The notes below the pieces were generated by a model. The model had not been told where the DNA came from, made no database searches, and saw only the letters and a list, made by a program, of their open reading frames with translations. From positions 1 to 41,411 of IMG/VR virus record IMGVR_UViG_3300048907_000031: a DNA stretch of 41,411 bases; one strand, given 5' to 3'. Both the position numbers and the translations under genes were made by a program. The DNA is from a virus. Each line of letters starts with the position of its first letter. Position 1 is the stretch's first letter. Positions 3,114 to 34,409 of the stretch are shown here, piece by piece.

Positions 3114-4057
3114 CTTTTGGATTAAGCGCAGGCGCAATCGGGGGCTTGACTACCGCAGCGGGTGGCATCGGTTCGGCCTTGCTTGGCGGCAATGCGGCGG
3201 GTAAAGCTTCGGCTGCGCAGATGATGGCGGCGCAGGCTGGCGTAGGTGGGGTTAACAATTCGATTAACCAAGCGAACGGCCTGTATCAGAATGATGTTAA
3301 TAATACGAACAACTTGCGTGAGCAAGGCATTAACTCCATAAATGGTTTTTACGGTAACGGCGTCAATAGTGTTAATAGCTATTTTGGCGCAGGCGCTGGG
3401 CAGGCTAATGACAAGCTTGCCCAATTTGCACAGATGATGCAGCCCTATATTAATGGCGGCAATGGCGCGCTGACTGCACAGCAAAACTTGCTTGGCATTA
3501 ACGGAAATGATGCGCAAACTGCGGCTATTAATGGCATTAAGACTAGCGGCCAGTACGACGCGCTTAACGCGCAAGGCCAGGACGCTATCTTGCAAAACGC
3601 TTCAGCTACAGGCGGTTTGCGTGGCGGCAATGTTCAAGGCGCGCTTGCTCAGTTTGCGCCCGCGTTGCTTAACCAAATGATCCAGCAGCAATACGCCAAC
3701 TTGGGTGGCCTTACCTCGATGGGCGCGAACGCGGCTAACAGTGTGGGCAATGCTGGTATTAATACGGGTAACGCAATCCTCGGTGCGGCGAGCAATGCCG
3801 GTAACACTATTGCTAATCTTGGTAGCAATGCTTCGTCCAATGAAAACGCGCTTAATCTAGGAACGATGCAGCAACTTAACAACCTTGGCATTAACCTATC
3901 TAATACGAGCATGAACGGCGCGCAGCTTATTAGCGGTTTGCTTAACCAATCCGGCGCAGCGCAGGCCGGTGGCGCATTGGCGCAGGGCAAGGCGCAGCAG
4001 AACGGGCTTAACTCTATCTTCCAGGGCCTTGGCTCTTGGCTTGGGGGCGGTAAATAA
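3110..4057 (+). CDS. Gly/Asn/Ala/Gln-rich internal virion (ejection-type) protein, 315 aa
   Basis: The position corresponds to the P22 ejection-protein block. It has a hydrophobic Gly-rich N-terminus (GLSAGAIGGLTTAAGGIGSALLGG) and low-complexity N/G/A repeats. ATGA and TAATG coupling occurs at its two ends. Confidence 0.75.
   Translation: MTFGLSAGAIGGLTTAAGGIGSALLGGNAAGKASAAQMMAAQAGVGGVNNSINQANGLYQNDVNNTNNLREQGINSINGFYGNGVNSVNSYFGAGAGQANDKLAQFAQMMQPYINGGNGALTAQQNLLGINGNDAQTAAINGIKTSGQYDALNAQGQDAILQNASATGGLRGGNVQGALAQFAPALLNQMIQQQYANLGGLTSMGANAANSVGNAGINTGNAILGAASNAGNTIANLGSNASSNENALNLGTMQQLNNLGINLSNTSMNGAQLISGLLNQSGAAQAGGALAQGKAQQNGLNSIFQGLGSWLGGGK
3741..3749 (+). repeat. GTGTGGGCA motif copy 2
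   Basis: Read in acaGTGTGGGCAat, codons aGT GTG GGC Aat (S-V-G-N). Confidence 0.95.
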
Positions 4058-17066: not shown

Positions 17067-17735
17067 TCAACGCGCCCATGCAGGCTTGTCGGATGCGGCG
17101 GACTGCGCAGGGGCCGGAGCCTGCGACCAAGACGGCGCCGCGGCGGCTTCCTGCGGAACCTGGGCGGGCTGCGGCGCTTGCTGGAAAGCCTGCGAGGCCT
17201 GTTGCTGCATAGGAGCCTGAGCAGGAGCGCCCCAAGCCTGGGCGGGCTGTTGCTGCGGCTGCACCGGGGCCTGTGGCTGTTGCCGGGTGGGCTGGAAGGC
17301 CTGCGCCGAAGCGGCGGAAGCAGGGCGGCCCGGTTCGTTGCCGTTCGGATCAAAGACCTTCTTGACTTCGGTATAGCCCTTCTCGCCCTGTTCGCCACCC
17401 TGCAAGCCGACTTCGATCATGCAACGCTGGCCGCGAAGCGAAGCGCCTTCCGAAGACATATCGACGCGGAAAACGCCAGTTGCATGGCAAAGCGCGGAAA
17501 GCTGTTTGTGGGCAATATCGACCGCTTTCTGCGATTGATTCCACAGATTATAACGGCTGGAAATGCGCCCGCCTTCGGTTTCAAACTCCACAACGAACAT
17601 TCCGCCGTTGTTCTCTTTGGTGGGCTTGATTGAGGTTGCGGAGATAATCGCTGCAAACTTGCCAATCGGATGCGAACCGCCGCCTTGTTCGGGGGCGTAT
17701 TGGGTAGCGTCGAAAACGTAATTGAAGCCAGACAT
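17067..17735 (-). CDS. DUF669-type phage ssDNA-binding protein with a P/Q/A-rich C-terminal tail, 222 aa
   Basis: N-terminal pattern MSGFNYVFDATQYAPEQG...GKFAAIISATSIKPTKENNGGMFVVEFE...YNLWNQSQKAVDIAHKQLSALCHATG is typical of DUF669 proteins that sit next to Sak4 (recalled). The tail is low complexity and ends ...DKPAWAR with no acidic tip. Confidence 0.75.
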   Translation of the reverse strand: MSGFNYVFDATQYAPEQGGGSHPIGKFAAIISATSIKPTKENNGGMFVVEFETEGGRISSRYNLWNQSQKAVDIAHKQLSALCHATGVFRVDMSSEGASLRGQRCMIEVGLQGGEQGEKGYTEVKKVFDPNGNEPGRPASAASAQAFQPTRQQPQAPVQPQQQPAQAWGAPAQAPMQQQASQAFQQAPQPAQVPQEAAAAPSWSQAPAPAQSAASDKPAWAR

Positions 17736-18763: not shown

Positions 18764-18915
18764 TGCGAATCATCCATAGGATCAACAGAGCCGGGAACCA
18801 TCCAAATAGACTGTGCGCCGCTTTCTTTGGCGTAGTCTTCGGCGTCAATCCATTCGGAAGCGAAAGTTGCAAACTGCCACCTTTTACGAAGGTTAGGGAA
18901 GTACATAACCATCAT
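18760..18915 (-). CDS. Hypothetical 51-aa protein (below the track cutoff)
   Basis: My own translation is MMVMYFPNLRKRWQFATFASEWIDAEDYAKESGAQSIWMVPGSVDPMDDSQ. ATGA overlaps occur at both ends (18915/18912 and 18763/18760), and it exactly fills the gap. Confidence 0.5.
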   Translation of the reverse strand: MMVMYFPNLRKRWQFATFASEWIDAEDYAKESGAQSIWMVPGSVDPMDDSQ

Positions 18916-19433
18916 TTCTTCTTTTCCTTCGGTTCTTTAATTTCCAGCGTCGGAGCCGCTTCGGTAATCTCAAGAATTTTATTAAGTTCCTGGAGCATGG
19001 CCTTCTTAGGCGCGCTGTACTCCGCTTCCTCAACAATCTTGCGATATTCCGTGATAGACATATCGACGGAATATTTAAACAGCCGATCCGCGATAAATCC
19101 GCCTTCACTGGAAATGCGGGAGAAGGCTTCGGCGCAAAGGTCAACAGCGTCAACGGCGTCGCCCTTAAAATCCGCAGGGGCCTTCAGCTTATAGTTAAGC
19201 TTTCTGACGCCTTTCAACTCATAGCCGTTGCCCAGCGCAAGCGTATTCGTGCCTTCCTTGGCTTCAGTAAAGCCAAGCGCGAAAGCCTGCTTGCGCCAGT
19301 TCATTTCGGCTTCTTTAGCAATACCAAGATTGGTCTTCGCTTCTTCCCATTTGGTAAGGGCTTGTTCAAGTGTGAGCGGCTTCGCAGCTTCGGCGGCTTG
19401 GGGGTTTGGATGGGTTGGCCAAGGGTTAGACAT
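18912..19433 (-). CDS. Hypothetical replication-module protein, 173 aa from ATG 19433 (the track's 294-aa form from TTG 19796 would add an (Ala-Thr)n N-terminus)
   Basis: ATG 19433 (MSNPWPTHPN...) is preceded by GAAAGGA at 8-nt spacing. The longer form needs a TTG start inside the upstream gene with no visible SD, and reads through the hexamer array. Confidence 0.65.
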   Translation of the reverse strand: MSNPWPTHPNPQAAEAAKPLTLEQALTKWEEAKTNLGIAKEAEMNWRKQAFALGFTEAKEGTNTLALGNGYELKGVRKLNYKLKAPADFKGDAVDAVDLCAEAFSRISSEGGFIADRLFKYSVDMSITEYRKIVEEAEYSAPKKAMLQELNKILEITEAAPTLEIKEPKEKKK

Positions 19434-19503
19434 TCTAGCTATCCTTTCTAGGAGTAATGGTACAGCATTTATTAGATGCTGCACCTTATTCTTAATCTTC
19501 TGA

Positions 19504-19761
19504 GCCGGAGCCGTAGCCGGAGCCGTAGCCGTCGCCGTAGCCGTCGCCGTAGCCGTCGCCGTAGCCGGAGCCGTAGCCGTCGCCGTAGCCGTAGCCGTAG
19601 CCGTCGCCGTCGCCGTAGCCGGAGCCGTCGCCGTAGCCGTCGCCGTAGCCGGAGCCGTCGCCGTCGCCGTAGCCGGAGCCGTCGCCGTCGCCGTCGCCGT
19701 CGCCGTAGCCGTCGCCGGCTCCGTCGCCGTAGCCGGAGCCGGCGACGGAGCCGGAGCCGTC
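19504..19761. repeat. Tandem hexanucleotide array, 43 units of GCCGNN (GCCGTA/GCCGTC/GCCGGA, with two GCCGGC units and two TCC/GAC first-triplet variants)
   Basis: Parsed by hand from 19504 (gcc gga gcc gta gcc gga ...) to 19761. There are 15 GTA, 17 GTC, 9 GGA and 2 GGC units. Five of the six frames have no stop across the array. Confidence 0.95.
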
Positions 19762-19765
19762 GCTA

Positions 19766-20062
19766 TTATCCTTTGTAGACAACGGCGTTCTCCCAAGCTT
19801 TGGCAGCAAGCGCAGAAACTTCAGCAACGGAAGTAACCTTGCGCAAATCAAGCGAAGTCGCGCGTTCTCCGATACGAGAACCATTGACAGGGCCGACGCT
19901 CGCCAGTCCGATAAAGCCGCCCTGAGTTGACGGCCAGTAAATGCAATTACGCGCATCATAAAGCGTGATTTGGTCGCCTTTCGTATCTTCGGCATAACCA
20001 AAGAAGACGCCGCGATATTCGGTAGTGACAAGGACGGGGCGGAGATTGTTCGGCTTTTCCAT
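19766..20062 (-). CDS. Hypothetical protein, first gene of the minus-strand operon (98 aa)
   Basis: ATG 20062 lies downstream of a predicted promoter. The ORF ends with tandem stops TAA TAG immediately before the hexamer array. Confidence 0.7.
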   Translation of the reverse strand: MEKPNNLRPVLVTTEYRGVFFGYAEDTKGDQITLYDARNCIYWPSTQGGFIGLASVGPVNGSRIGERATSLDLRKVTSVAEVSALAAKAWENAVVYKG

Positions 20063-20198
20063 TCGGTTGAATCCTTCGTGATTCGTTTTGACAATCGGAA
20101 ACTAGCGCACTGCGGAAAGGCTGTCAACCCGTATAATGTCCCTTGCGGCCCGTATGATGTTCCTCTATCTTGGCGCAAAATCGGTTGGAGGTCAAATT
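20063..20198. promoter_or_regulatory. Divergent control region between the replication operon (-) and the HTH/primase genes (+)
   Basis: Minus strand: TTGACA (complement of 20122-20127), a 17-nt spacer, then TAGTTT (complement of 20099-20104). Plus strand: a perfect TATAAT at 20132-20137 and TATGAT at 20153-20158, each inside a repeated CCCGTATRATGT unit. A further TTGACA lies at 20088-20093. Confidence 0.5.
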
Positions 20199-20399
20199 AT
20201 GCCGAACGCTAAATGTTGTATGACGCTTTATGAGGAAACACTATTACTTGTAAAAGAGCGCAAAAACACAATAACGTATGCGCAAATTCATGCTGATACA
20301 AATCTTGGGGTAAGCTGGCTTAAGAAGTTTGCTAGCGGCAATGCGCCAAATTCTAGCATCCGTTCTGTGCAAAAGCTAAATGATTACCTTAAAGCCTAA
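20199..20399 (+). CDS. Small HTH (Cro/XRE-like) regulator, 66 aa
   Basis: ATG 20199 follows GGAGG. The segment ITYAQIHADTNLGVSWLKKFASG looks like a helix-turn-helix. The track ORF 20136..20399 is the same frame with an earlier alternative start. Confidence 0.65.
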   Translation: MPNAKCCMTLYEETLLLVKERKNTITYAQIHADTNLGVSWLKKFASGNAPNSSIRSVQKLNDYLKA

Positions 20400-22863: not shown

Positions 22864-23024
22864 CCGCAACACTGTGACATAAATACAACATATAGATATA
22901 TATATTATATTATTATATTTAATATATTTCCTTATTCTTCTAGGGCTTCAGCGTTAGAAAATTCCCATACCGGCTTATATGGTCCTAAAAGAAGCTAAAC
23001 GACGAATTTATCGCATGAAGCTAG

Positions 23025-32682: not shown

Positions 32683-33072
32683 ATGTGGTCTAGCGAGCAA
32701 ACCGAAAAAGATAGATTTGCCTTTGAATGGCTCCGTGAACCGGACGCCTTCAAGGCTGCTTTGGCTATTACTGGCGAAGGTAACGCGGGCCGCGCGTTGC
32801 TGTTTGCGTCCGAATGGATCAAAGACCCTTACGTTATTAATAAGAAAAAAGAATTAATAGACGAACAGGGCGAAGAAAGCTTTCTTCCGGCTAAAGCCGA
32901 AATCGCACGCAAAATCCTAGCAGTTCACGATGAAACATTGGATAAAGAAACAAAGCTTAAGGCTTTGCGTCTCTATAGCGAAGTGCTGGGCTATATCACA
33001 AAGCCGGGGGAGGGCAAGGATAAGGGCGCAGGGTTTACGATGAATTTAACTGCTACGGATGTTGCGCTATGA
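32683..33072 (+). CDS. Terminase small subunit candidate, 129 aa
   Basis: It lies immediately upstream of, and is ATGA-coupled to, the large terminase. Its size and helical character fit. No diagnostic motif was seen. Confidence 0.55.
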   Translation: MWSSEQTEKDRFAFEWLREPDAFKAALAITGEGNAGRALLFASEWIKDPYVINKKKELIDEQGEESFLPAKAEIARKILAVHDETLDKETKLKALRLYSEVLGYITKPGEGKDKGAGFTMNLTATDVAL

Positions 33073-34409
33073 TGCATTTCACGCCGAAGCAGCTAGAAGC
33101 GCAGCAAGTTCTAACCGTCGATTCGGCTGTTTATTGCATGTTGTTCGGCGGCTCGCGTTCAGGCAAGACTTTCTTGCTTGTTCGCAATGTCATCATGCGC
33201 GCTATCAAAGCCCCCGGCTCACGTCATTGCATCCTGCGCTTTCGCTTTAACCATATCAAATCGGCTATTATCTTCGATACCTTTCCGAAGGTTATGCGTA
33301 TTTGCTTTCCCGATTTAGTTTACAAGTTAGACCGGGTTGATTGGTTTGCTAAGCTTCCGAATGGCTCCGAAATTTGGTTCGGCGGGTTGGACGATAAAGC
33401 CAGAACTGAAAAAATCCTCGGTAACGAGTATTCGACTATTTATCTTAACGAGTGTTCGCAAATCTCTTGGGGCGCTTACGGCATGGTCGTTACGCGCCTT
33501 GCCCAAAAGATTATGCAAAGCATTGACGGCAAAGAGCCTGTTGCACTCAAGCCTCGTATTTACTTCGATTGCAATCCGCCAAATAAGCTTCATTGGACAT
33601 ATTTAGTTTTCATTAAGAAAGTTGACCCGGAAACTAAACTTCCTTTGCAGAAGCCGGAAGCCTATGTTTCATGCAAGCTTAACCCGGCTGACAACGCCGA
33701 AAACTTAAGCGACAATTATCTTGAAACCTTGCAAGGTCTTTCGGCTAGATTGCGCCGACGCTTCCTAGATGGCGAATTTGCGGACGCTACGCCCAATGCT
33801 TTGTTTACGGACGAATTGATAGATAGCTGGCGCGTGATAGACGGCAAAATCCCGCCCTTCGTTCGGGTTGTTATTGCTGTCGATCCTTCCGGCGCAGACG
33901 ATACCGATAACGCCGACAATGACGCCATTGGCATCGTCGCGGCGGGGCTGGGCGTGGACGGGAACGCCTACGTGCTGGAAGACTTGACTGTGAAGGCAGG
34001 GCCAGCCACATGGGGCCGCGTGGCCACTACAGCCTATGACCGCCTCCGGGCGAATTGCATCGTCGGAGAGACGAACTACGGCGGCGCGATGGTGCGTCAG
34101 ACCATCCAGATTAGCCGCCCCCGAACGCCGTTTATTGAAGTTCACGCCTCACGCGGTAAGGCGGTGCGTGCGGAGCCGATTAGCGCCTTGTATGAAGAAG
34201 GCAAGGTCAGGCATGTTGGAAACTTCAATGAACTTGAAGAAGAATTAACGGCCTTCACGACTTCCGGCTATGTTGGGGCAAAGTCGCCGAATAGGGCCGA
34301 TGCGCTAGTGTGGGCAATTCACGCGCTGTTTCCTGGCCTCACGCAACCTACCAAGAAACCGAAGATTGAACCTGTTATACCTGTATTTAACCCGATGGGG
34401 CGCATGTAA
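33069..34409 (+). CDS. Terminase large subunit, 446 aa
   Basis: Walker A LFGGSRSGKTF. Walker B-like TIYLNECSQ. The nuclease-domain acidic motif is VIAVDPSGADD. Confidence 0.9.
   Translation: MMHFTPKQLEAQQVLTVDSAVYCMLFGGSRSGKTFLLVRNVIMRAIKAPGSRHCILRFRFNHIKSAIIFDTFPKVMRICFPDLVYKLDRVDWFAKLPNGSEIWFGGLDDKARTEKILGNEYSTIYLNECSQISWGAYGMVVTRLAQKIMQSIDGKEPVALKPRIYFDCNPPNKLHWTYLVFIKKVDPETKLPLQKPEAYVSCKLNPADNAENLSDNYLETLQGLSARLRRRFLDGEFADATPNALFTDELIDSWRVIDGKIPPFVRVVIAVDPSGADDTDNADNDAIGIVAAGLGVDGNAYVLEDLTVKAGPATWGRVATTAYDRLRANCIVGETNYGGAMVRQTIQISRPRTPFIEVHASRGKAVRAEPISALYEEGKVRHVGNFNELEEELTAFTTSGYVGAKSPNRADALVWAIHALFPGLTQPTKKPKIEPVIPVFNPMGRM
34308..34316 (+). repeat. GTGTGGGCA motif copy 8
   Basis: Read in ctaGTGTGGGCAat, in the terminase CDS, codons GTG TGG GCA (V-W-A). 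Confidence 0.95.

Follow-up and report, generated by a model that had tools for sequence, protein, structure and literature searches.

FUS-type low-complexity domains are dominated by Gly, Ser and Tyr and carry [G/S]Y[G/S] motifs. In Epstein-Barr virus, EBNA1 is a large DNA-binding protein with an internal Gly-Ala repeat, the length of which varies between isolates; at the nucleotide level this repeat is GC-rich and highly uniform, and it affects proteasomal processing and translation in cis in eukaryotic cells. Silk-fibroin-type (Gly-X)n sequences are of the GAGAGS and GAGAGY kind, while T7 Ocr is an acidic early DNA-mimic decoy, a folded dimer with carboxylates that copy the geometry of B-DNA. 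Among phage repeat proteins, gp53 (DUF7666) of Salmonella phage ES18 is encoded directly after an N-like gene in the early-left operon. In bacteria, Hfq of Acinetobacter baumannii combines an Sm core with a long, acidic-tipped C-terminal domain made of GGFGGQ repeats; its function depends on the repeat number, and the tail affects RNA binding and autoregulation (PMC11617691). Prokaryotes and phages seldom have Tyr-rich low-complexity sequences; in their low-complexity regions, aromatic residues are strongly under-represented, and the mean phage region is 33 aa long (PMC6821194).

Here, we focused on a hexanucleotide array in a 41,411-nt stretch of viral DNA (the window; the whole of IMG/VR record IMGVR_UViG_3300048907_000031, positions 1 to 41,411). 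The first-pass annotation had described 43 GC-rich hexamers that fill the only large gap in a leftward replication operon, and had left several readouts of them side by side. The features of the region are as follows.

19766-20062, minus strand: DUF6948 gene, 98 aa, first gene of the leftward operon (Pfam PF22253)
19790-19794, minus strand: Shine-Dalgarno-like GGGAG, 7 nt 5′ of the TTG below and inside Trp-Glu codons of the DUF6948 gene
19492-19782, minus strand: unannotated ORF for a (Gly-X)n low-complexity protein of 96 aa, from TTG at 19782-19780 to TAA at 19494-19492
19503-19760, minus strand: hexanucleotide array located by TRF, GGC-KMC on the coding strand, 43 units or 86 codons of Gly-Asp, Gly-Tyr or Gly-Ser
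19459-19485, minus strand: 10-bp hairpin GGUGCAGCAU-cuaauaa-AUGCUGUACC in the 58-nt spacer from the repeat ORF stop to the DUF7173 start, with no U-tract after it
18912-19433, minus strand: DUF7173 gene, ATG 19433 with AAGGA upstream (Pfam PF23791, E 5e-30)

The repeat reading frame in the window

TRF returned a single array with a period of 6, 43.0 copies, 83% matches and a score of 299. The array is thus real, and only its earlier placement at 19504-19761 was off by one. Read in codon register on the minus strand, the units are GGCGAC (16 times), GGCTAC (15) and GGCTCC (9), plus GTCGCC and GGAGCC. The product of the frame is laid out as M/L-STKDNSD-(G-[Y/D/S])n-SED and contains 42 Gly, 19 Asp, 15 Tyr and 12 Ser among its 96 residues, with a net charge of about -19.5 and a mass of 8.9 kDa; its only Lys is residue 4. 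Gly alternates strictly with Asp, Tyr or Ser, and each of the 15 Tyr stands in a G-Y-G context, which gives the protein the dense [G/S]Y[G/S] motifs of FUS-like domains.

The upstream gene ends with VVYKG and TAA at 19768-19766, followed by TAG at 19765-19763; this double stop and the SD-supported ATG at 19433 were both correctly recognized at first pass. The TTG of the repeat ORF lies in the +1 frame relative to DUF6948, 14 nt before the DUF6948 stop, so that the two genes overlap by 17 nt, over the last five sense codons. TTG is a weak start codon, and most relatives have ATG instead. The same TTG was also chosen by the gene caller on contig L001 (Logan SRR35925482), which matches the window at 100% identity along 3313 nt and stops 78 nt into the array. 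Since this independent contig is identical, the array is not a one-off artefact. Its copy number of 43 is provisional, given that the array spans 258 nt and that about a quarter of the related contigs break inside their arrays.

The protein collection for the window's contig holds no entry for the Gly-X ORF, for the Arg/Ser ORF on the opposite strand or for any other ORF in the array. Pfam and PHROGs gave only sub-threshold low-complexity matches to the repeat protein (TrAA12 and phrog_18306). RTX repeats (9-residue GGXGXDXUX) and a pentapeptide beta-helix were considered and rejected, given a strict period of 2 residues in the window and no match to a Pfam repeat family. AF2 without an alignment predicted no secondary structure at a pLDDT of 40, and such a run is a poor test of disorder. 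Downstream of the ORF, the 10-bp hairpin appears in both the MFE and the centroid structures and is not scored as a terminator; a promoter and terminator scan of the region found none above the shuffle background. The supposed large gap disappears once the ORF at 19492-19782 is called, leaving only the 58-nt spacer. On the sequence evidence, the array is the coding body of a putative small minus-strand gene at 19782-19492, a missed gene rather than intergenic filler. We assign a probability of about 0.82 to the whole reading, namely a coding gene in a cassette with DUF6948, with an array that changes length by in-frame slippage.

The predicted protein resembles FUS-type domains in its Gly/Ser/Tyr composition, and its Tyr residues are spaced as aromatic 'stickers' in a flexible chain would be; it differs from them in having no Gln or Asn, in its 19 Asp of 96 residues, in its strict period of 2, in consisting of the repeat alone and in belonging to a phage. 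With EBNA1 it shares a viral Gly-X repeat of variable length and a GC-rich, uniform coding repeat, whereas X in EBNA1 is Ala, the repeat there is internal to a large protein and its effects are eukaryotic. As in silk, Gly alternates strictly with a small residue or Tyr over a long stretch; unlike in silk, X includes 20% Asp and hardly any Ala, the prediction shows no beta structure, and the protein is intracellular and only 96 aa long. Like Ocr, it is small and very acidic, its gene heads an operon and it is accessory to replication, but it has no predicted fold, and the Asp content varies widely among its relatives. DUF7666 phage proteins are also small with a tandem-repeat tract, and many metagenomic members carry exactly a G-[Y/D/N/S] repeat, in contrast to the 9-residue SAATNTGNW-type repeats of ES18 gp53 and the 5-residue NTGxx repeats of a C. 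difficile phage protein. In DUF7666 proteins a compact globular head is joined to the tract, and relatives do possess this domain, whereas the window protein is repeat only and has no DUF7666 domain; tblastn found no DUF7666-like or other fused-domain homologue elsewhere in the window. The arrangement resembles Hfq in pairing a small barrel, possibly of Sm type here, with a long repeat of Gly and aromatic residues that also carries acidic ones. The Hfq tail, however, is covalent and built from a Phe/Gln hexapeptide, while the repeat here is a Gly-[Tyr/Ser/Asp] dipeptide usually encoded by a separate overlapping gene; moreover, Hfq has a genuine Sm barrel, whereas DUF6948 is Sm-like only by a weak fold match.

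Conservation and length variation of the repeat gene

Among 94 loci found through DUF6948, about 85 have a G-[Y/S/D] ORF directly at the DUF6948 stop, either overlapping or abutting it. Of 23 distinct close loci, 21 have the start codon exactly 14 nt before that stop (18 ATG, 2 GTG and 1 TTG), and TGGGAGG or TGGGAAG is conserved at the homologous upstream position in 23 related loci. The Asn codon that forms the start is AAT in 15 of 15 cases, while at other positions of these genes AAC outnumbers AAT by 137 to 81. In more distant relatives, the ORF is in the other frame and the offset of its ATG varies. Some relatives continue the repeat, in frame, with a conserved C-terminal domain of about 115 aa; in others, it follows a DUF7666 domain, an N-terminal domain of about 55 aa or a truncated DUF6948.

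The residues of the repeat are conserved as well. In 2,903 dipeptides, X is Tyr 1241 times, Ser 850 times and Asp 704 times, and these three residues account for 96% of positions; Tyr makes up 21% of the repeat residues across relatives. Ala (GCC) occurs as X only 9 times, though it is one step from GAC or TCC, and no internal stop was found, though each of the 1,241 Tyr codons is one change from a stop. In some arrays, Gly is GGG or GGT, or the second codon is NNT, throughout, and the G-[Y/S/D] pattern is still kept. These patterns clearly point to purifying selection on the repeat gene, which is tightly coupled to one small barrel superfamily across deep divergence.

The length of the array differs between near-identical genomes. 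Contigs L002 and L003 have flanks that are 98.7% identical and encode repeat proteins of 124 and 112 aa, with 67 aa in a third contig; similarly, L010 and L014, with flanks of about 96% identity, have 68 and 98 aa downstream of the DUF6948 stop. Given this variation, the tract is hypermutable, and its in-frame growth and shrinkage fit slippage of the 6-nt unit, in agreement with the initial remark that such slippage always preserves the frame. The idea of a contingency tract thus holds for the variable length and fails for phase variation: a 6-nt unit always keeps the frame, so a phase-variable on/off locus was rejected, the length being tuned and the gene not switched.

Slippage of the 6-nt unit would also keep codons nearly uniform within each array. 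The arrays use GGC for 90% of Gly, TAC for 93% of Tyr, GAC for 90% of Asp and TCC for 89% of Ser, compared with 50%, 52%, 59% and 16% in the adjacent DUF6948 genes. This uniformity is consistent with concerted evolution through slippage or with selection for fast translation; a further constraint on the DNA or RNA itself may act as well. We thus weighed a dual role, in which the array is translated and has its own DNA or mRNA function, such as polymerase pausing, a recombination hot spot, translational throttling or a weak G-rich structure. The uniform codon choice extends over 85 diverged loci, and Ser is AGC in only 2 of 807 cases, yet the neighbouring gene uses AGC for Ser more often than any other codon; the GG of each Gly codon means that a GG-N4 pattern is always there, and the frequent contig breaks inside arrays speak in the same direction. 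However, arrays with GGG or GGT for Gly, or with T-ending second codons throughout, leave no single DNA motif conserved. RNA folding was no better than that of shuffled sequences (z = -0.32), and no G-quadruplex appeared in the MFE structure with quadruplex energies enabled. Moreover, slippage homogenisation and selection for C-ending optimal codons would suffice for the uniformity, and we consider a dual role rather improbable.

The +1 offset of the Gly-X frame and its overlap with the last five sense codons of DUF6948 would also suit a repeat that extends DUF6948 at its C terminus and is reached by programmed +1 frameshifting of the ribosome just before the double stop. The weak TTG initiator agrees with this, as does database protein P0142, in which a truncated DUF6948 domain is fused directly to the repeat. 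Against it, the DUF6948 homologues inspected (n = 409) all end in ...VYRG without a tail, and no shift or heptanucleotide slippery site was noticed when the junctions of close loci were read by eye. The start codon is kept in the close loci, with codon choice biased to create it, and the different frame and variable ATG offsets of distant relatives also disagree with a fusion. A programmed frameshift fusion was rejected as very unlikely, given an independent conserved start codon in 21 of 23 loci, and a separate, overlapping repeat gene is the reading that we retain.

A two-gene cassette with DUF6948

The upstream gene belongs to the DUF6948 family, with a match to PF22253 over residues 8-90 of 98 (E 2e-20, 73.1 bits against a cut-off of 27). 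Its AF2 model (pLDDT 78.8) has five strands and a C-terminal helix, and the conserved loop at 40-66 is of low confidence. In a Foldseek search of this model against the PDB, weak matches to Sm/LSm proteins were the best (E 3e-3 to 2e-2, TM 0.43-0.62), and against a viral library only other DUF6948 proteins were returned. The Sm/LSm fold is a ring-building barrel with an N-terminal helix followed by five strongly bent strands and with Sm1 and Sm2 motifs.

When IMG/VR was scanned by DNA pattern alone, DUF6948 lay directly upstream in 61 of the 97 arrays with enough upstream sequence. Of the other 36, 28 are preceded by remote DUF6948 homologues, by reading of the sequences; these were assessed with Pfam scans, which gave matches, and with hhalign (93.7% probability, E 1.9e-7). 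About 89 of the 97 arrays (~92%) found by DNA pattern thus stand behind a gene of the DUF6948 superfamily, and well over a hundred uncultured phages carry the repeat gene behind this same small barrel gene. The window has the same layout, with both genes on one strand and TTG 19782 before the DUF6948 stop. Of 6 loci with stored Pfam annotation, 5 have a Cro/CI-type HTH_3 gene next to the pair, and a Cro/CI-like ORF lies within 1 kb upstream in 18 of 95 loci, a lower bound obtained with a crude local HTH model; in the window, an HTH in the divergent ORF 20136-20399 has no Pfam support. Taken together, these comparisons indicate that a DUF6948-superfamily barrel gene and a (Gly-[Tyr/Ser/Asp])n gene form a conserved cassette in many unrelated phage and prophage contexts. 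In several relatives it is at an operon head beside a Cro/CI-type regulator, and here it is at the head of the replication operon.

Sphingomonas phage Birtae has a syntenic replication operon that carries neither the DUF6948 gene nor the array, and its first gene is a DUF7173 homologue of 42% identity. Since that operon lacks both genes, the array is part of an accessory cassette of two genes rather than of the replication machinery; likewise, the DUF7173 gene is the first gene of the replication/recombination module proper and lies outside the cassette. In the 94 DUF6948 loci, no DUF7173, Sak4 or SSB gene was found within 3 kb. The first-pass annotation had proposed a comparison with operons that carry the same two flanking genes and no array; in Birtae the array is indeed missing, but so is the upstream DUF6948 gene. 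Against 50,697 isolated-phage records, blastn with the locus matched only the DUF7173 part of phage Birtae, and tblastn with DUF6948 and with the C-terminal domain of about 115 aa found no match. A literature search on DUF6948, DUF7666, the repeat strings and glycine-tyrosine phage repeats returned nothing relevant.

The array could instead be non-coding, as an iteron-like origin, a protein-binding array, a structured RNA or a G-quadruplex tract, as had initially been offered. It lies near the divergent control region of the replication operon and was unannotated at its source, and lambdoid origins can lie in repeats. Iteron origins, however, have several 17-22-bp initiator-binding repeats beside an AT-rich unwinding region, while the unit here is a GC-rich hexamer with two degenerate positions and no AT-rich unwinding region is adjacent. 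An iteron-type origin was rejected on these grounds and because the array is conserved as codons and not as a motif, and because it is absent from the syntenic Birtae operon. Rfam gave no match, there was no excess of RNA structure over shuffles, and a G-quadruplex tract was also rejected, the array having only GG runs with 4-nt loops and the ViennaRNA quadruplex energies giving none in the MFE structure. All of the comparative coding evidence contradicts a non-coding array, which we regard as highly improbable.

The three readouts listed at first pass do exist, namely the Gly-Tyr/Asp/Ser frame ending at TAA 19494-19492, an (Ala-Thr/Pro)n frame open from 19796 through DUF7173, and a plus-strand Arg/Ser-rich, protamine-like ORF at 19476-19778, but they are not equal, as comparative data back the Gly-X frame and argue against the others. 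That the product is an Ala-Thr/Pro extension of DUF7173 or the Arg/Ser peptide is hardly credible, even though both frames are open in the window and gene callers sometimes call the opposite-strand ORF in relatives (L098 6224-6529, L102 4620-5066): composition alone opens every frame of any GGC-NNC array; neither the A-T nor the R-L frame is conserved, with other residues (G-T and similar) wherever Gly is GGG or GGT; the sole start of the A-T frame is a TTG inside the upstream gene, and in relatives this frame closes at variable points before a gene that is never DUF7173; and in the product from ATG 19433 the match to the DUF7173 profile starts at residue 19, while the Birtae homologue has no such extension.

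Possible function and meaning of the cassette

Given that the start codon and the GGGAG motif lie inside the last DUF6948 codons, in the +1 frame, the two genes appear to be arranged for translational coupling. The product would be a flexible, non-globular polypeptide, and its regularly spaced Tyr, together with Asp and Ser, may make it a multivalent binder. It may act with the DUF6948 barrel, as a tail in trans or as a scaffold or decoy, possibly through nucleic-acid mimicry or by nucleating a Tyr-driven assembly, with an accessory role in host takeover or counter-defence rather than in replication itself. Drawn from composition, gene order and analogy, a flexible multivalent partner of the barrel with such an accessory role is a tentative proposal that we hold possible but doubtful. 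The wide variation of Asp content between relatives weakens a pure charge-mimic model.

We also propose, more speculatively and as an unlikely extension, that an Sm-like barrel and a stand-alone (Gly-Tyr/Ser/Asp)n protein might form an early tyrosine-driven assembly that serves to take over the host or to counter its defences; this could be a condensate or gel, or else a decoy that mimics nucleic acid, and the repeat length would be an evolvable parameter. If true, this would be a prokaryotic-virus counterpart of eukaryotic systems that combine LSm proteins with low-complexity tails.

The repeat gene represents a family in at least 200 viral contigs that neither Pfam nor PHROGs detects. It is often miscalled in gene prediction, with the wrong strand or frame, and it frequently causes contigs to break; its recognition closes such 'gaps' and flags assemblies in which the repeat length is unreliable. 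The cassette is a testable candidate for a new phage module of host interaction or RNA/DNA handling, and it offers a natural system for how in-frame repeat slippage tunes a disordered protein.

The array and its place in the phage genome

Tandem Repeats Finder detected just one strong array, at 19503-19760, with a period of 6, 43.0 copies, 83% matches and a score of 299. On the minus strand and in codon register, its units are GGCGAC (16), GGCTAC (15) and GGCTCC (9), plus GTCGCC and GGAGCC. Its flanks were as the first-pass annotation had described them, with a 98-aa gene ending VVYKG-TAA-TAG at 19768-19763 and the next RBS-supported ATG at 19433. The bordering genes match DUF6948 upstream and DUF7173 downstream in Pfam; past DUF7173 follow a Sak4-like ATPase, a DUF669 SSB, a Cas4-type exonuclease, a helicase and a family A polymerase, while an NrS-1-like primase is transcribed divergently relative to the operon. 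The window is a phage genome: it comprises an entire 41,411-nt contig, which encodes portal, terminase, head and ejection proteins. A contig obtained independently, in a different data set (L001, Logan SRR35925482), is 100% identical to it across 3313 nt and ends 78 nt inside the array. Two further features accompany the cassette, by which we mean the DUF6948-superfamily gene and the (Gly-[Tyr/Ser/Asp])n ORF downstream of it:

19459-19485, minus strand: hairpin (10 bp, 7-nt loop, no U-tract) in the 58-nt spacer from the repeat ORF stop to the DUF7173 start
20136-20399, plus strand: small ORF transcribed away from the DUF6948 gene, with a counterpart (33% identity) at the same position upstream of the primase in Sphingomonas phage Birtae

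The hairpin may mark where the inserted cassette ends on its 3′ side, or serve in RNA processing or stability. The small ORF appears helix-turn-helix-like by eye and had no Pfam match. A second low-complexity tract of the same operon is the long, Gln/Ala/Pro-rich C-terminal half of the DUF669 SSB-like protein (17067-17735, minus strand). Elsewhere, the kilobase with the lowest GC content in the genome (0.417) contains a microsatellite-like (AT)n / ATATATTTA tract at 22890-22929, some 215 nt beyond the point where the primase gene ends (22676); this tract may serve as a terminator, a promoter region or an unwinding element. The tRNA-Val (gac) called by ARAGORN at 34056-34131 (minus strand) lies within the large terminase ORF (33069-34409, plus strand) and is probably a false positive.

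A Gly-X reading frame coupled to DUF6948

On L001 the gene caller placed a start 17 nt ahead of the DUF6948 ORF end, in the +1 frame; its equivalent in the window is TTG 19782, with GGGAG 7 nt upstream. The product opens with M/L-STKDNSD, continues as Gly-X repeats and closes with SED before the stop TAA at 19494-19492. Contigs whose DUF6948 is 72% identical to that of the window have an ATG at the exact homologous nucleotide, followed by repeat ORFs of similar composition (124, 112 and 67 aa) whose DNA shows no clean hexamer and has GGCGGCGGC runs inside. We then sampled loci through DUF6948 alignment (80 viral and 9 genomic loci fetched; 94 loci in all). A (Gly-[Tyr/Ser/Asp])n ORF overlaps or abuts the DUF6948 stop in about 85 of the 94, and the exceptions are mostly contigs ending at most 200 nt past that stop. 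Among 23 distinct loci with DUF6948 ending ...YRG or ...YKG, the start codon lies exactly 14 nt before the DUF6948 stop in 21 (ATG in 18, GTG in two and TTG in one, the window). The Asn codon giving the A and T of the start is AAT in 15 of 15, with 137 AAC versus 81 AAT in the rest of those genes, and the Trp-Glu codons upstream of the start form TGGGAGG.

In distant relatives the repeat runs in frame into a conserved C-terminal domain of about 115 aa, weakly DUF7666-like, and in others it is preceded by a DUF7666-like domain or by an N-terminal domain of about 55 aa; among database proteins, the repeat comes after bona fide DUF7666 domains and, once, after a truncated DUF6948 domain. At several loci every Gly codon is GGG or GGT, or every X codon ends in T, with the G-[Y/S/D] pattern intact, and there the remaining two frames specify different residues. 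The X position of 2,903 dipeptides is mostly filled by Tyr (1241), Ser (850) and Asp (704), with all others combined making up less than 4%; Ala (GCC), the fourth K-M-C combination, which a single mutation separates from GAC or TCC, was counted 9 times. Stops are absent from the arrays, though each TAC is one change from a stop. At the level of comparative sequence, these results show that the Gly-X ORF is a translated, coupled, conserved and length-variable gene of an accessory cassette. One locus, L074, has a frame switch within its array (~3270-3460; G-Y/S to R-L in one frame, A-T to G-Y in another), which reflects a sequencing error or else a pseudogene carrying a frameshift.

Repeat length, codon uniformity and alternative readings

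Repeat number varies among relatives: contigs with flanks 98.7% identical encode proteins of 124 and 112 aa, a third one of 67 aa, and a second pair with flanks about 96% identical differs by 30 residues, although assembly error may contribute to differences between near-identical contigs. About a quarter of the contigs in both samples end within the array, a point at which assemblies of ~40-kb phage contigs commonly break; short reads thus resolve it poorly, and the count of 43 units given for the window is provisional.

Array codons are near-uniform (GGC 90%, TAC 93%, GAC 90%, TCC 89%), far more so than those of the neighbouring DUF6948 genes (50%, 52%, 59% and 16%, respectively). This would fit a separate DNA- or RNA-level constraint acting on the array besides coding, but slippage homogenisation, possibly plus selection for C-ending optimal codons, can explain the uniformity, and we regard such a constraint as improbable, though it is the leading rival to a purely coding array. 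The array transcript segment folded no better than dinucleotide shuffles (z = -0.32). An Rfam search of the window gave no matches, and a promoter and terminator scan gave nothing over background.

Among the readouts listed in the first-pass annotation, (Gly-Tyr/Asp/Ser)n stands on the conserved start, the fusions, the synonymous switches and the restricted X, whereas the Ala-Thr and opposite-strand Arg/Ser frames both lack conserved boundaries; they are open because GGC-NNC repeats are stop-free in every frame. In the related contigs L098 (6224-6529) and L102 (4620-5066), stored calls put an opposite-strand ORF, presumably in the Arg/Ser-type frame, where the Gly-X array is expected downstream of DUF6948; this looks like a systematic miscall in the family. 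The suggested G4 was absent from the minimum-energy structure computed with quadruplex energies enabled, and a stable G4 tract, an on/off contingency locus, an iteron origin, RTX or pentapeptide repeats and a DUF7666 protein were each rejected on their defining tests; a frameshift extension likewise failed its test and is unlikely.

The cassette and the possible role of its product

IMG/VR was scanned by array DNA pattern alone, to avoid circularity, which gave at least 120 arrays. Among the matches listed, 97 arrays had at least 400 nt upstream, and DUF6948 lies directly upstream on the same strand in 61. The preceding protein of 28 of the other 36, read by eye, shares a core pattern, e.g. 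IVVLDRGFVYVG...NAKNIRRWGTTKGLGEL; three of six such proteins matched DUF6948 in Pfam, two above the gathering score, and alignment of the two remaining groups with the DUF6948 profile gave 93.7% probability (E 1.9e-7). The association thus reaches about 92% of the 97 arrays listed and persists through deep divergence of the barrel protein. One locus, L211, carries two Gly-X repeat genes in tandem.

DUF7173, Sak4 and SSB genes occurred within 3 kb in 0 of the 94 loci. Where stored annotation exists, the pair usually forms the first two genes of an operon, beside or divergent from a Cro/CI-type HTH_3 gene, and one relative has ERF, YqaJ and NinB genes farther along that operon. The divergent HTH_3/DUF6948 unit occurs twice in succession on L102 (4205-5679), suggesting duplication or stacking of cassette plus regulator, and on L101 (3599-4729) an IS605 OrfB/TnpB (Cas12f-like) gene directly adjoins the HTH_3/DUF6948/repeat unit. 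The homologous Birtae module is syntenic with the window (identities: primase 47%, small divergent ORF 33%, DUF7173 42%, Sak4 33%, SSB 30%, exonuclease 43%, helicase 45%), and there DUF7173 is the first gene, DUF6948 and the array both being absent. It follows that the pair was inserted at the operon head as an accessory cassette and lies outside the replication machinery. A related operon without the array was thus found, as had been envisaged, but it also lacks the upstream DUF6948, so the two flanking genes are not simply abutted.

DUF6948 has 409 detectable homologues, and most among the 120 matches listed are 92-98 aa; 13 of 13 inspected, the longest included, end ...VYRG without a tail. 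Its AF2 model (pLDDT 78.8) is a five-stranded barrel plus C-terminal helix, with the most conserved segment, NCIYWPS..GGFGGLASEGP, as a low-confidence loop. Foldseek matched Sm/LSm proteins weakly (E 3e-3 and above, TM 0.43-0.62) and, in the viral library, only other DUF6948 proteins.

The repeat protein of the window (96 residues; G42, D19, Y15, S12; charge about -19.5) lacks hydrophobic core residues, and no fold is predicted for it. Tyr, Ser and Asp are kept by selection whereas Ala and Phe are eliminated, so the tyrosines and the hydroxyl/polar character matter beyond flexibility. In FUS-type low-complexity domains, multivalent contacts are driven by Tyr set between Gly/Ser spacers, a composition that also dominates minimalist synthetic binding sites, and nucleic-acid-binding barrels such as Hfq are regulated by acidic and aromatic tails. 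We tentatively propose, as a possibility short of even odds, that the repeat protein would join the DUF6948 barrel as a flexible, multivalent partner or tail in trans, and that, as scaffold or as decoy, it might serve an accessory function in host interaction. A purely electrostatic DNA-mimic model is disfavoured because Asp content varies widely among relatives. The protein resembles, but does not belong to, FUS-like domains, the EBNA1 Gly-Ala repeat, silk-type (Gly-X)n, DUF7666-plus-repeat phage proteins such as ES18 gp53, and Hfq with Gly-aromatic repeat tails; Acinetobacter Hfq has GGFGGQ repeats, and their number matters (PMC11617691).

Neither repeat protein nor cassette is described in Pfam, PHROGs or searchable literature. 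Aromatics are reported to be strongly under-represented in prokaryotic and phage low-complexity regions, with a mean phage region of 33 aa (PMC6821194), which makes an 86-residue tract with 16-21% Tyr, covering 90% of the protein, unusual. The product belongs among the tandem-repeat, low-complexity proteins. ES18 gp53 (L095 2480-3328), whose gene follows the N-like gene of the early-left operon, has a DUF7666 domain followed by ten or so SAATNTGNW-type 9-mers, and a C. difficile phage DUF7666 protein (L096 1974-2921) has NTGxx 5-mers after the domain; these isolated phages suggest a general architecture of a small head plus a variable repeat tail. The cassette also occurs, presumably in prophages, in the cultured bacteria Xanthobacter agilis LMG 16336 (L088) and Dyella marensis (L093, chromosome), which would offer convenient experimental entry points.
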